Shown here piece after piece: positions 33,342-49,087 of a stretch of 64,000 nt of DNA; the first letter of the stretch is position 1; each line of letters starts with the position of its first letter. The DNA is from Minutocellus sp. GHC0000111 (taxonomy: Eukaryota): the NCBI GenBank assembly GCA_977018835.1, contig OZ361260.1:1922001-1986000 (forward strand). Direction: 5' to 3'. The translations under genes were made by a program, and so were the position numbers. The notes beneath the pieces are model-generated. The model ran no database searches and had not been told where the DNA came from. It saw only the letters and a list, made by a program, of their open reading frames with translations.

Positions 33342-34662
33342 GACGTTTGGGATTGTCTTGGTTACTGACGCGGAGTGGCTGGAATTTAACTTGTACCTAG
33401 GTACAGTATGTGTAGCGCAGCAGCAGGCCAGCGCGCCACGGCCTCGCCTCTAGCTAGCACGCCGCGCCGTGGTCGTGGTCGCGCCGTAGATTCGATTCGA
33501 CCATGCATGGCGATGGCGCTGCGGAATGGTACTAACTAAGGCCTTTTTATTTCTGTGAGACATCATTCAGAAGTTGAGATCGATACGAAGCCGATGACGC
33601 ATGACGAGCCAGATAGCATGCATCATACAAGAGCTCTGCTGCTCATGTGGTCTCGGTGGTGTGGCGACGGACAGACCAAATGGCATCGGAGGGGTGGGTT
33701 CCCATCCGCTGGTTCGTAGCCTGTGCACTGTTTCTACGTAGCTTGGCTGGCATGTCGTGCTTTCTGTCCTGAGTGTTCATTGTTGGTGTTCATTGCAGAG
33801 GTGGGAGAGAGGGGCTACAGCAGATGGCCCAGGTGCCCTGGCGGGGCTGCTGTTTGGTTGCTCTCTTTCTTCCTGTTGCCGTGTGTCCGTGATGAGCTAG
33901 CTGTTCCTCTTCTTTTTTTTATTATTATAAATTGGCACTTCGTGCTACAATTCTTTTCTTACTGCTTAAGCATAACTCTCTTTACTTTTTATACGTTTCT
34001 TGTTTATAGTCGATGCCTCTTCCTGCATTTACTAATGTTGAATGCTCAACAATCCTATATGGCCGAGACGTATAATGACGTCATATGGAAAGTAGTGAGA
34101 CATTCTGCTCACAGGTGCGCGTTCAAATCGTGGCCGTCGATCGTATCCTGCATCGGTGCGCCGTGTGAGCTCCATTGTAATTGTACATCGTCGTCTTCGT
34201 TGCGCTCGTGGCGGTGTCGTCGTGGTGTTTCTTGTCTCTTCTGTTTCCCTACCATGGATTCGTTTGCGGCTTCTCCCCTCGGCAAGGAATTCTTTCGTCG
34301 TTTGTGGTTGTCCTCTCACTGTCGCCAATGCTAACCCTACCCATCTCTCGTCCCCGTCATTCGTTGATATCGTTCTCTCGAATCAATTTCACTCCTTCAT
34401 CGTCGATCTTTGTCTGTCTCGTTATATATTTGTATCTTCCGCTGTCGTCGATCCTGTATCTCGGTCTCTCGAATCTCCTCGGTCTTTTGGTTGTCTCTCT
34501 TCTTCGTCGAGCCTCGTCGATCGGTGTCTTATTTTTGATATCTTCCGTCGTACTGTTTATCGCATTGACGGGATATTTTTCTTCCGTCGACCTCATAGCT
34601 CTTTTCGTCTTCGTCGTTCTGGGTCGGACATTGATTGGAGTGGTTCTGTTTTACCTTTTGTA

Positions 34663-35085
34663 ATGTCATGTGTCCCGACGTTTCGCACGGTCTTTCGGCA
34701 TCCTGAATTTGCACGTTTTGTCCAATCATTAGCTTCCGAACCTCACGGCCCCGGCGCGGCATCTGCAGGTCCTATTCATGCTTCTTTTTGCCATTTCATA
34801 GCATCTTTTCTTGCTGTGAACCAGCTTGAGCAAGTCGACGTCTTACGTGTTATCCATGCAGCTGACAGAGAGTCAATCTGTTCCGATGAAATCCCCATGC
34901 TCTATGTACGTGATGCCAACGTTGGATCCGCTGCTTACGTTTTCAGATCTAATTTTGACTCCAACCCCCATCTCCCTAGCGATGTTTTTGCCTCCTCGTC
35001 TCCCGTCTTTCGTTACCTCAGATCATGCTTTCGATCTGGTCCTCATTTCGATCCTTCTGGTCCTGATGATTACGGTCAGCTCTGA
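34663..35085 (+). CDS. Small accessory ORF (140 aa) of the Helitron-like element, unknown function
   Basis: ATG at 34663 with protein-like composition, convergent with the left-arm gene and separated from it by a palindrome-bearing AT-rich gap. Confidence 0.45.
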   Translation: MSCVPTFRTVFRHPEFARFVQSLASEPHGPGAASAGPIHASFCHFIASFLAVNQLEQVDVLRVIHAADRESICSDEIPMLYVRDANVGSAAYVFRSNFDSNPHLPSDVFASSSPVFRYLRSCFRSGPHFDPSGPDDYGQL

Positions 35086-35189
35086 AGATTTCATGTACCT
35101 CGCTCTATTTATCTTTGTGGAATATTCAACATTTGTAGATATCTCTTCTTTAATTTTGCTAGTATTATATACATATATATTAATTATTC

Positions 35190-45400: not shown

Positions 45401-48400
45401 ATGTTACGGACTACAGAAAGGATGAGGCTAAACTATGCGAAGAATGCATGATGCACACATGCAGTGGATATTGCATGAGACATCCAAAAGGAAAGAAGAA
45501 GAAGAAAAGATGCTGCCGTGCTGGGGCCGGAGAAGAAAAAACAAAGAATAGAAACGACACTCCTGGTTTCCCAATGCGGGATGCTCCAGCTATTACTCAC
45601 GACCACAGGGGATTTCTGAAACTCGAGATGCCACGGAATCATCCGCGTTTGGTCCAAGCTCCGCTAACAATTTTGAGAGGTTGGAGAGGTAATTGCGACT
45701 TTAAAATCCTGTTGTACAAATCCACGAATGGAAAACCACATCCCGAAGAAATATCAACAGTGACCGACTATGACGTCGCTTACCAATGCAAAGGAAATGA
45801 GAGAATCCAAGCTGAAATACAACTTCTCCGCGATTTTGCCTTAAAGTGAGTATGAATTAGTATTTGTATATTTTATGCTTCAATCTCAAACTAACAACGA
45901 GACTGCATGTTTTTATTATTATTTGAGAAAAGCGCTGAAACGATGACTGGGACAACAGCAGACGTCATCAGAGTGTCTCGACAAATGCTCAACCGATCAA
46001 TTGCAAGCAGAACAATTCCAAAGCAAGAGTGTATGGTCGAACTAGCGGAACTCCCGCTAGTCTTAAGTTCCGACACAACCGAAACAATAAACCTGTCAGG
46101 GAGTTACAAGATTAAATCGGATACTCACAGAGACTTAGTGTCCCAATATCGAAAAATCGCAAAGAGCAATCCGACAATGTCACTACACGATTACGTTCGT
46201 AAGGCAATCAACGAGAAAAAGAGATCAGTGAAAAACGGAAAAATGAAATACAAAAACGTAATCCCGCATTACGTTGGGGCAAACGGTCAGCCGAAATACC
46301 CACCAACAAAAGAATACGCGATGGCAATTCTCATAGTACACAAACCATGGGAAGACAGCAAGCCAAAAAGAAGGAACGGAGCACAAGATTGGATCGACGA
46401 ATTCAAAGAATTTGTCACATCAGAAGCGTGTCCAGAATTCGTGAAAATGGAATACGCACGAGTAAAAGAAAGAGCCGAGAGCAAGAGGCCATCCGAAGCG
46501 ATATCATCAGAGGAGTGCTACGACTACGAGACACAAGCAGATGTTGACGACTCAACCAAAGATCTTTTAAATATCATCACGACTCAAACACTGGCCACAG
46601 ACCCGTTTTTAAATGTCCACGACCAAAAAATCAATAAAGGCCTACATTACGACTGGTCCGAAAGAATGTCAGTAAGTCATTTATACCTGATTTATTTTCG
46701 TCGAATATTCAACAAACATAAATGACAAAAATACATCCAACAAGGGAAATTTTTTGTTTGACACAACATCCGATATTTTTTTTATTCTATCACGCATTTT
46801 TTTTAAAAAAAAGACTAGGGATCCTTCATACCTAGGAGAGTCGTGGCTCGATGAATTAACACAGGGCTACCAAGCAGACCTCTCTGCCAAGCAGAGGGTA
46901 AGGCCTTTCACGATGACCCTCGACGGTGAAGTGACAAACATCACCATAGACCACGTGAAAGATGACCAACTCGACGTGATTTTATTGGTAGTGGAAAACA
47001 TAAAGAAATGGATAGAAAGCGCAAAGGGAATCAACAAAAAGGATGCTAAAGAGTACAAGCCCCTTAGAATGACCGTAAGGGGAGCAGCAGGATCAGGTAA
47101 GAGTTTCTTCATTAAGGCCCTGGCAAATACGGTCAGAGAGATGTTTGGCGATCAAAACGCAGTTCACATATCTGCGCCGACAGGAGCAGCAGCTCACAAC
47201 GTCGGCGGCGAAACGATACACAGGAAATTCCAAGTAAATCCACACAGGCCAGAAAATGATATTGGTAAGGAGGCGAAAGCTCGATTAAAGGAAACGAAAA
47301 GAAGAACAGTGGTCGAGATAATCGACGAGAGAAGCATGCTGACATGTAAAGTCGTGGGAGCAGCAGAAAGGCACACACTGCAGAAGCAGCTCATGGAGGT
47401 TCCCACGCTAATGAAGACTGGGGTGGCATACCAGTGGTTGTATTTGTAGGCGACGACTACCAACTACCACCGCCAACAAATGTAGAGAAAGGAGCTTTCG
47501 ATCTGATGGACAGCAAGACATCATTTTCACAACAAAAGCTAGGCGACGCATCATTTGGATCACAACTCCTAATGAACATGTCAGAAAAATGCGTAGAGCT
47601 TAGGTCAGTCAGTAAAACGTCAAAATGGAACACAGTCGAAGTTCAAGGAAGTGCTACAGAATCTAAGAACAGGAGACCCCACACACGACGATGCATCCTT
47701 TTTAATGAAGTTACATCTGGCAAACCTAACTCAAGCGGAGACAGAGGAAATGGAAAAGGACAAAGTAGTAATGCACATGTTCGCCACAAAAGCGCCACGA
47801 GACGAGTACAACGTGAGGAAACTAAGTGAAAACGCATCCGACAGAAACCCCGCGGCACTAGTTAAAGCTTCATGGAAAACAAGCAGACGAGCAAACCTAC
47901 AGTCCATCGCCCAGCACTTTGACAACCCACCAGATGCAGCAACTTTAATGTGCAGAGGGTCTGTGGTCAGAATCACAGGGAAAAATTTCGAGCCAGACTT
48001 TGGACTGTTCAACAACGCCATCGGAACTGTAGAAGAAATAGTGTTCAAACCAGGGAAAGACCCGAACAATGGGGACCAACCGAGTTATGTAGCTGTGAGG
48101 TTTGAAGGATACAGCGGGCCAGCATGGGGGACGAGTCGGAACCAAAAATAGTCCCAATTCCAATGATGGTGACAAGAAGATGCAACAAAGGATGCTGCGA
48201 AGTGACATGCTGCCCACTAAGCCTCTCATACGGAGTGACAGCCCACACATTCCAGGGGCAATCAGCAGGACCAGTGGATGAAGGCCAACCAAAAAATGCA
48301 GTAGATTGTGTAGTGTTCTATCCAGGAAACAACAAATTCGAAGGAAACAACCCCGGCTTGTTGTACATGGGAACATCAAGAGCTACGACACATCAGGAAC

Positions 48401-48694
48401 AGGAAGACTAGACTCAGCACTATAATATTTTTCAGGACAAGACATGAATACATACAGAGTCATAGGACTTAAATACCAACGAGACGGAAAAACACCATGC
48501 AAGAAAGAAGTGCAACTGAGACAAAAATGGATAGAAAGACTAGACAAAAACAAACACCATTAGAGACCAAGTTGGGACAACAAAGAAAAAGAAGAACTAA
48601 TCACATGGGCAAAGACGTTCCGAATGAGCACCAACAACCTAGAAGACATTTTAAGCATGAAAGAATGGAGAGCATGCAAAGCATAAAGCGATGA
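42499..48694 (+). pseudogene. RepHel polyprotein, copy B
   Basis: Same motifs and frameshifts as copy A. Introns 43057-43190, 45281-45374, 45846-45932, 46672-46813. One substitution noticed near 48149. Confidence 0.9.
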
Positions 48695-49087
48695 CTCCCG
48701 TGTTTACTAATGCTGAATATTCAACAAAACTGTGTCAGACTATGACGTCATACAGAAATCAAATTCAGGGGAACATCCGGGGAAAAAGTAAGCCGGCACG
48801 AGCCTCCAGTTCATTCAACAATAGTGAGCTACAAAAATAAGCGTCGTATATTTAACATCTTAAAATCGTATAAGTATGCAACTATAATTGCAGCAGGGAA
48901 GACGTAATTGCTAAAATGGCCCAAGGTCCCCCCAACACAACCAACGAACGACAAAACAGAGGGCACCCGGGCCCACTACGTACCTAGGCCTAGGTACCTA
49001 GGTACATGTAGTAGGCGCCTATCACCAACCATACTACATGTAGCCTACTGAAGGTAGGCCCACACCTTGACTGGTCCAAACGCCACG

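Follow-up and report, generated by a model that had tools for sequence, protein, structure and literature searches.

Helitrons are usually described as a RepHel transposase gene accompanied by randomly captured fragments. A 64,000-nucleotide stretch of Minutocellus sp. GHC0000111 DNA (assembly GCA_977018835.1, contig OZ361260.1, positions 1,922,001 to 1,986,000 of the forward strand; hereafter the window) holds a large Helitron2-like element with several further genes and a short palindrome repeated through its introns, and raises the question of whether such genes are captured or the element's own, and what the palindrome does. Comparing the element with its relatives, we conclude that the accessory genes are native to a Helitron lineage with a conserved two-arm layout. 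We further propose that the ten non-coding palindromes are binding sites of an accessory protein, most likely the left-arm protein with its ParB-like motif, through which the family would recognise its own copies and keep them active. We give this reading a probability of roughly 0.58.

The element coincides with a low-GC block of the window at about 33.6-49.0 kb. Its ends, splicing and copy variation were read from the contigs of eight public DNA and RNA runs (labels X1, X2, X5, X7, X9 and X11 among them). The features are as follows.

33627-48975: whole element, about 15,349 bp, without target duplication, ends uncertain by 1-2 nt (from an empty allele, other flanks, contig starts and sequence)
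33627-33633, minus strand: left terminus, reading CTCTTGT
33826-33839, plus strand: inner (subterminal) inverted repeat, 14 bp, perfect in other runs (A33831G)
34663-35085, plus strand: open reading frame (ORF) of 140 amino acids, in a region covered by RNA contigs
35190-40048, minus strand: left-arm gene, about 1,357 amino acids, exons 40048-40046 (ATG), 39620-38651, 38534-37650, 37551-36905 and 36750-35190 (from RNA joints and pieces, with an exon-5 family of 15 proteins)
37519-37551, minus strand: GxxR motif SVQINGAKRTV at the start of left-gene exon 4, resembling a ParB/DGQHR box
40424-42136, plus strand: ORF1, 530 amino acids, exons 40424-41190 and 41311-42136, intron 41191-41310, with a C-terminal alpha/beta domain common to many relatives
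40806-42460, plus strand: alternative intron, spliced out in RNA contigs of X7 and X9 so that codons 1-127 of ORF1 continue in frame into the ubiquitin-like exon
42461-43056, plus strand: ubiquitin-like exon, Gly-Gly at 43012-43017 (...RGG), then the basic stretch GRKRS
43191-48686, plus strand: RepHel body, exons 43191-45280, 45375-45845, 45933-46671 and 46814-48686, in this copy frameshifted at 47372 and 47604 and broken at additional points close to the 3' end
48960-48973, minus strand: terminal inverted repeat, 14 bp, lying 2 nt inside the right end; TGGGCCC opens the minus strand

A preliminary description of the window, made from the letters alone, had recognised RepHel, a two-exon gene of about 530 amino acids and a 140-amino-acid ORF, all of which are present. 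RepHel matches DUF6570 (E 7.6e-19), Helitron_like_N (E 8.5e-17) and PIF1 (E 3.6e-9) in Pfam, and the ORF1 intron appears in all five RNA runs. The multi-exon gene on the opposite strand also stands, at about 1,357 rather than about 1,500 amino acids. Its five exons and four introns are supported by RNA contigs from two studies, and its length assumes a start at the ATG that closes exon 1; the same arrangement, ATG followed by the intron's GT, begins the left gene of a metagenome relative, L067. The arms diverge as described, with 375 bp between the start codons of the left gene and ORF1 where tens of bases between ORFs had been given. The 140-amino-acid ORF, without a homologue in the 123 loci searched, may be non-coding, and none of the element's ORFs other than RepHel has a Pfam match above the cut-off. 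The left protein begins MARTKSSKPRK (window 40048-39594), which we take to resemble the histone H3 tail; mimicry of histone H3 by this start (MARTK) was dropped as an idea, as it is not kept in the predicted start of L067. In X11, spliced plus-strand RNA contigs from the left end (33710 to 34009; 34905 to 35309) overlap the left gene's 3' end in antisense orientation (window 33710-35309).

The two arms behave as one unit. In X1 and X2 the DNA depth is about 6-8 times that of the flanks, a ratio that is not a copy number; high and even over both arms, it indicates that they travel together. The exon-5 protein of the left gene occurs as 15 near-identical variants on contigs of 11 different sizes, from 0.7 to 5.3 Mb. 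The element is a multi-copy Helitron2 with several insertions. The copy in the window is decayed: frameshifts at 39165 (in the left gene), 47372 and 47604 and a stop at 37466 (also in the left gene) are absent from the other runs.

Relatives were collected with a degenerate Rep-motif scan, which gave 119 metagenome loci, with flanks for 80 (39 without extended flanks); the 17 whose upstream sequence spans 6.1 kb or more are called long loci here. L067, whose Rep is 64% identical to that of the window, matches it in the order and orientation of the left gene (with homologues of left exons 2-5), ORF1, the ubiquitin-like exon and RepHel, and its accessory proteins are 26-36% identical to those of the window. 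ORF1 and the ubiquitin-like exon also occur together in L035, L057 and L066. An iterated ORF1 profile matches 13 of the 17 long loci, and in the remaining four a long plus-strand ORF, undetected by the profile, lies there. Upstream of RepHel, a GxHR or GxKR motif, searched as (I/L/V/A)(D/E/N)Gx(H/K)R, is found in 15 of the 17, on the opposite strand in 14 and on the same strand in one, against 9 matches in 724,644 control codons; the two long loci without it end early. As a one-arm variant of the layout, L054 and L073 carry a DGQHR-motif gene on the RepHel strand (a 1,185-amino-acid ORF in L054). The exon-5 domain has 15 representatives in a 50%-identity library, most of them without genomic context, and the homologue sets of exon 5 and ORF1 share a longest contig size of 18,061 bp, which suggests one shared contig.

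The preliminary description had argued for native cargo in a large Helitron2-like family from the palindrome that the genes share, and had suggested looking for co-occurrence of the accessory genes with RepHel. The shared palindrome is a weak argument alone, and the relatives have borne it out. The depth over both arms, the 15 exon-5 variants, the matching genes, order and orientation of L067, and the co-occurrence of RepHel with ORF1 (13/17) and the GxxR motif (15/17) in metagenome relatives all agree with native cargo. The preliminary description had overlooked where the element really ends on the left, the exon with the ubiquitin-like domain, the GxxR motif and the change of palindrome from one family to another.

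The palindrome, GTTGAATATTCAAC, is 14 bp long and occurs ten times in the element with up to two mismatches, always outside coding exons. The expectation is 0.11 sites, the maximum in 200 simulations was 2, and 37,962 bp of host DNA contain none. Seven sites are intronic (one in a predicted intron) and three lie outside genes, while three of the nine introns have no site. The sites are strand-symmetric and spread every 1.1-2.9 kb over the whole element:

34037-34050: site 1, left non-coding region
35117-35130: site 2, between the 140-amino-acid ORF and the left-gene stop
36844-36857: site 3, left-gene intron 4
39722-39792: sites 4 and 5 (starts 39722 and 39779), left-gene intron 1
41242-41255: site 6, ORF1 intron
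43104-43117: site 7, predicted intron between the ubiquitin-like exon and Rep
45319-45332: site 8, RepHel intron 45281-45374
46700-46713: site 9, RepHel intron 46672-46813
48712-48725: site 10, 3' of RepHel

Of the seven substitutions in palindrome arms of the window, none is compensatory, which speaks for a site in DNA rather than a hairpin in RNA. In a 68%-identical ORF1 relative the same intron is translated, and the palindrome there yields FVEFPTFVN. The outermost palindromes (window 34026-34085 and 48701-48750) share a longer context, with TTTACTAATG before and ATGACGTCATA after, and L067 has TGTGTCAGATAGTGTGACATCA after its last site.

Other families have motifs of their own, including a 26-bp perfect palindrome (L051), a 24-bp one (L048) and a bipartite GATTATC-N26-GATAATC of 40 bp (L067). 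When the window and 18 chosen long loci were each compared with 12 shuffles, 17 of the 19 elements had a repeated palindrome above the shuffle maximum, with differing sequences (L010 and L045 only narrowly). The positions are largely shared: relative to the Rep motif, 13 of the 19 carry sites 1.6-2.15 kb ahead of it as well as 0.2-0.46 kb behind it, where 0.6 would be expected, and each of the eight window sites within the span of L067 has a positional counterpart there, with an unrelated motif. Because the motif differs between families while the positions stay, a reader that changes together with it is indicated. About 3.3-5.3 kb upstream of its Rep motif, L045 also has tandem repeats of about 240 bp between the arms.

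Fixed positions with changing sequence, strand symmetry and absence from host DNA together point to DNA sites for a dimeric, element-matched protein. An accessory protein is a likelier reader than RepHel because RepHel is conserved, whereas the accessory proteins have diverged to 26-36% identity in L067. A beta-strand with a (D/E)GxHR or GxxR motif is the signature of the ParB/Srx superfamily. The motifs of the 15 long loci and the window's INGAKR fit it, and so does the INGNKR of L067, which likewise follows an intron at this position. ParB-domain accessory genes are also reported beside inverted-repeat arrays in the algal DDE transposons Plavaka and Sola1, in the available parts of those studies (bioRxiv 10.1101/2025.02.11.637652; PMC12477816). 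These two points favour the left protein as the reader, and ORF1 remains a candidate. As a working model, RepHel would mobilise the element by rolling-circle transposition from its T-start end, as known for Helitrons, and a central bidirectional promoter would drive the left gene and ORF1. The dimeric accessory protein would bind the palindromes and co-evolve with them, as VANC does in VANDAL elements, and would either counter host silencing or activate the family's own copies.

The model also has a place for the exon between ORF1 and Rep. Judged by profile comparison, exon 42461-43056 ends in a ubiquitin-like domain with a terminal Gly-Gly. A five-sequence profile of the exon compared with the PDB gave ubiquitin, SUMO or ubiquitin-like domains in 59 of the 60 matches shown, including ubiquitin, SUMO, the parkin ubiquitin-like domain and ISG15, and the Gly-Gly is in register with ubiquitin-like proteins in both alignments shown. 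The five elements that carry the exon form one clade (support 98/100) in a Rep tree of metagenome loci, which retained 48 of 54 Rep segments after removal of near-duplicates and left out L041, L046 and L073. A splice across 43057-43190 would lead from this exon to Rep, as judged from an in-frame GTAAGT/CAG pair, and a VS (GTAAGT-type) donor position recurs in the relatives. Through the second splice form, the N-terminus of ORF1, the ubiquitin-like domain and RepHel would be fused into a protein of about 2,000 amino acids. A host deubiquitinase or SUMO protease could then cut after the Gly-Gly and free RepHel with a basic N-terminus. Control of the transposase by a second splice form and a ubiquitin-like cleavage site is thus suggested. 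The RNA contigs of two studies support the three introns of the RepHel body. Contig depth in RNA looked about ten times lower on the Rep part and the alternative splice joint, a figure on which we do not rely, as contig depth cannot rank expression. Searches for longer ORF1 homologues found none, and neither did an ORF1 scan of metagenome and genome contigs.

Several observations weigh against this interpretation. Searches of Pfam, NCBIfam, PHROGs, the PDB and the Atlas returned no ParB match. In profile-profile comparison the probability was at most 30% against DGQHR proteins and below 1% against ParB, for which the reference alignment held only two sequences. The NGAKR region of the window fell outside the eight top matches in a comparison with 200 shuffles and reached a probability of about 2% or less with the DGxHR groups. 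Because this profile support is not significant, homology of the region to the DGxHR groups rests on position and motif, and the ParB assignment of the left protein is weak and of motif level. The relatives are not independent of one another and include the near-duplicates L010/L026 and L012/L023; the two positional intervals flanking the Rep motif were defined post hoc, and L041 and L046 have the GxxR motif with no detectable palindrome. For the fusion, the alternative ORF1 splice appears in two of the five RNA runs (X7 and X9), both from one study, and the junction from the ubiquitin-like exon to Rep was not seen in the RNA runs. Per-domain ubiquitin scores are weak (best single-domain E about 0.01), and the Pfam ubiquitin match reaches E 0.033 in one of the five exon family members. 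Finally, no chromatin-modifying domain was found in the element's proteins and CpG is not depleted (0.96 in the element, 0.93 in the host); a conflict over silencing has thus left no direct trace here.

How else might the palindromes and genes be explained? It is rather unlikely, in our judgement, that the palindromes are parS- or iteron-like sites on an extrachromosomal circle, where the GxxR protein would act as a nucleotide-switched sliding clamp for replication, compaction or segregation, or ORF1 would build a transposition complex, making the role mechanical and not anti-silencing. The strand-symmetric spread of sites over the whole element would suit such a role, as would retention of the GxxR motif in 15/17 long loci and the detection of Helitron2 circles in Fusarium (PMC5148889, as far as the excerpted source goes). 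The AT skew, too, rises from the left to the right end, from -0.59 to +0.93 at four-fold sites of plus-strand genes (rho 0.44), also does so within RepHel alone (rho 0.28), and has a positive slope in 17 of 17 long loci; on each strand of the element the 5' end is rich in T and the 3' end in A. This gradient may record replication of the element from both ends or an effect of transcript length. However, no ParA-like ATPase was found besides the helicase, and no end-to-end circular junction is listed in the eight runs, whose contigs drop rare forms and cannot show absence. Rapid turnover of the motif would also be easier to explain by conflict than by mechanics. Self-activation or anti-silencing of the VANC kind is favoured over a parS-like role on circles. 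A broader proposition, which we hold only tentatively, is a widespread, undescribed lineage of 14-16 kb Helitrons whose ParB-type clamp and family-specific, parS-like intron palindromes would form a site-recognition module of bacterial style in a eukaryotic rolling-circle element, there to mark, protect or segregate its copies and circles, and whose transposase host proteases would release from a ubiquitin fusion.

That the palindromes bind host transcription factors, help splicing or are left over from a small intron-forming element, with accessory proteins whose function is unrelated to them, is distinctly unlikely. Seven of the ten sites do lie in introns, where sequence is free to change, and L041 and L046 lack a detectable motif. 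Yet 38 kb of host DNA contain no site, three introns do without one and three sites lie outside genes, no arm changes are compensatory, and the motif differs between families at kept positions. An origin of the extra genes by capture from the host, or by chance nesting of several elements, is highly improbable. Helitrons do capture host sequence (PMC11417382, in the parts available), most exon-5 homologues come without genomic context, and the ubiquitin-like domain must presumably once have come from a host gene. Set against this are the order and orientation kept in L067 at 26-36% accessory identity, the ORF1 homologues in 13/17 long loci, the even DNA depth over both arms and a cargo without any Pfam or PDB family.

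The ends and class of the element bear on how it should be compared with others. In X1 and X5 an empty allele joins 33583 directly to 49006, high-depth DNA contigs of X1 and X2 start at position 33626, and X9 and X11 show two further, differing flanks at the same boundary; on these grounds the left end is placed at about 33627. The left limit of the earlier span, 33826-48974, was the inner inverted repeat, so that the element is 199 bp longer on the left. The RepHel translation contains QIHAHIL and DYDVAYQCK, the His-x-His and Tyr motifs of an HUH Rep, and GAAGSGKS and IIDERS of a PIF1 helicase. DUF6570 is the marker domain of HLE2 (PMC11417382, in the sections at hand). Together with Rep, the helicase and the short asymmetric inverted repeats, it makes the element a Helitron2. 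The subterminal repeat lies on the left, upstream of RepHel, and the terminal repeat downstream, and the insertion site reads CAT^AC-TAC (ambiguous by 1-2 nt); the insertion between T and T and the stem-loop after the right repeat that mark canonical Helitron2 are thus not seen, and the layout fits HLE2-reverse, HELIANO's name for the reversed-ORF type (PMC11417382, section 24, as excerpted). The minus strand of the element opens with TGGGCCC and closes with CTCTTGT. Only small hairpins (z -0.69) lie upstream of the left repeat, the place of the stem-loop in HLE2-reverse, and no hairpins above shuffles occur at the ends. The element is not a strict Helentron: an endonuclease or OTU domain has no Pfam match in 20 ORFs of the element.

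Elsewhere in the window, positions 1-10491 repeat 38882-49372 with one mismatch. This 10,491-bp duplication reaches about 398 bp into a flanking host FtsH-like gene, which the breakpoint cuts; the copy at 1-10093 therefore belongs to a segmental or assembly duplication and did not insert there on its own. At 19354-25559 lies a 3,103-bp tandem duplication (99.9%), each unit of which has an 859-amino-acid stop-to-stop ORF, a putative DNA transposase, with Cys/His motifs and a terminal zinc knuckle. A 108-bp tandem repeat at 26028-26641 encodes a 36-amino-acid repeat protein on the minus strand. Among the scanned loci, L001 (a Rep-motif match in a viral contig), L056 and L122 were discarded as not RepHel, and a scan of viral contigs with Rep and exon 5 found no relatives of either. 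One relative ends beside a eukaryotic 18S rRNA gene fragment (L022:8698-8960), a possible insertion in ribosomal DNA, and RepHel loci inside two prokaryotic metagenome-assembled genome records (L121 and L123) are probably eukaryotic contamination.

We found no description of this family or architecture in the literature searched (titles, starts of abstracts and term counts, outside Repbase, Dfam and subscription journals). The available parts of the HELIANO study report HLE2 in both diatoms sampled, with no ParB or DndB entry in the supplement, and a domain filter that ignored domains more than 4 kb from RepHel; they also list OTU, UCH and Ulp1 proteases as Helitron cargo (PMC11417382), none of which Pfam finds in the ORFs of this element. 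Like polyubiquitin, Ub-L40 and FUBI-S30, the ubiquitin-fusion precursors, the predicted fusion has a ubiquitin-like domain ending in Gly-Gly and followed by a basic tail; unlike in these, the domain is internal to a transposase isoform, and its cleavage is putative. The closest structural parallels lie among the Helitron2/HLE2-reverse elements, FoHeli3-5 of Fusarium oxysporum and the Phytophthora proto-Helentron, which share a RepHel with DUF6570 and asymmetric inverted repeats of 12-16 bp, one terminal and one subterminal. The termini of FoHeli3-5 read TGCCT at the start and CTCCTGT at the end, and the ORF is reversed in FoHeli4/5 (PMC5148889); the element likewise has a T-start and a CTCYTGT-like end, with RepHel opposite to the termini as in FoHeli4/5. 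The FoHeli elements are 9-11 kb long compared with 15.3 kb here, and their inner repeat is 20-40 bp from the end rather than 199 bp; the element described here also has no significant terminal stem-loop. Its pair of divergent native genes, its ubiquitin-like exon and its dispersed palindromes have no counterpart mentioned in the excerpted source.

For the accessory gene, the nearest systems are PAG3 of Plavaka in Bostrychia and Sola1-1_Ec32 in Ectocarpus, in which, as far as the accessible text goes, a large accessory gene has a ParB-like motif and inverted repeats are proposed as its own binding sites; in Sola1 the gene (1,104 amino acids) also lies opposite to the transposase. Those carriers are DDE transposons, whereas this is a rolling-circle element, and their tandem array beside the gene contrasts with single palindromes spread through introns. 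No methylase or 2OG (2-oxoglutarate) oxygenase domain was detected here, and the ParB fold of the left protein is putative. If the assignment is true, it extends ParB-like accessory genes to a second element class. VANC of the VANDAL elements, Arabidopsis Mutator-like elements, offers a parallel in behaviour, with no sequence link expected: a fast-evolving accessory protein has family-specific, non-coding target motifs that differ between related elements (PMC5735166, in the portions available), although its targets are tandem repeats and not dispersed palindromes. The lineage described here combines a stable multi-gene plan with a cis-motif whose positions are fixed but whose sequence is replaced between families. 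It may therefore offer many natural protein-site pairs for testing self-recognition by transposons, which the sources covered by our search, as far as they were available, show so far for VANC only.

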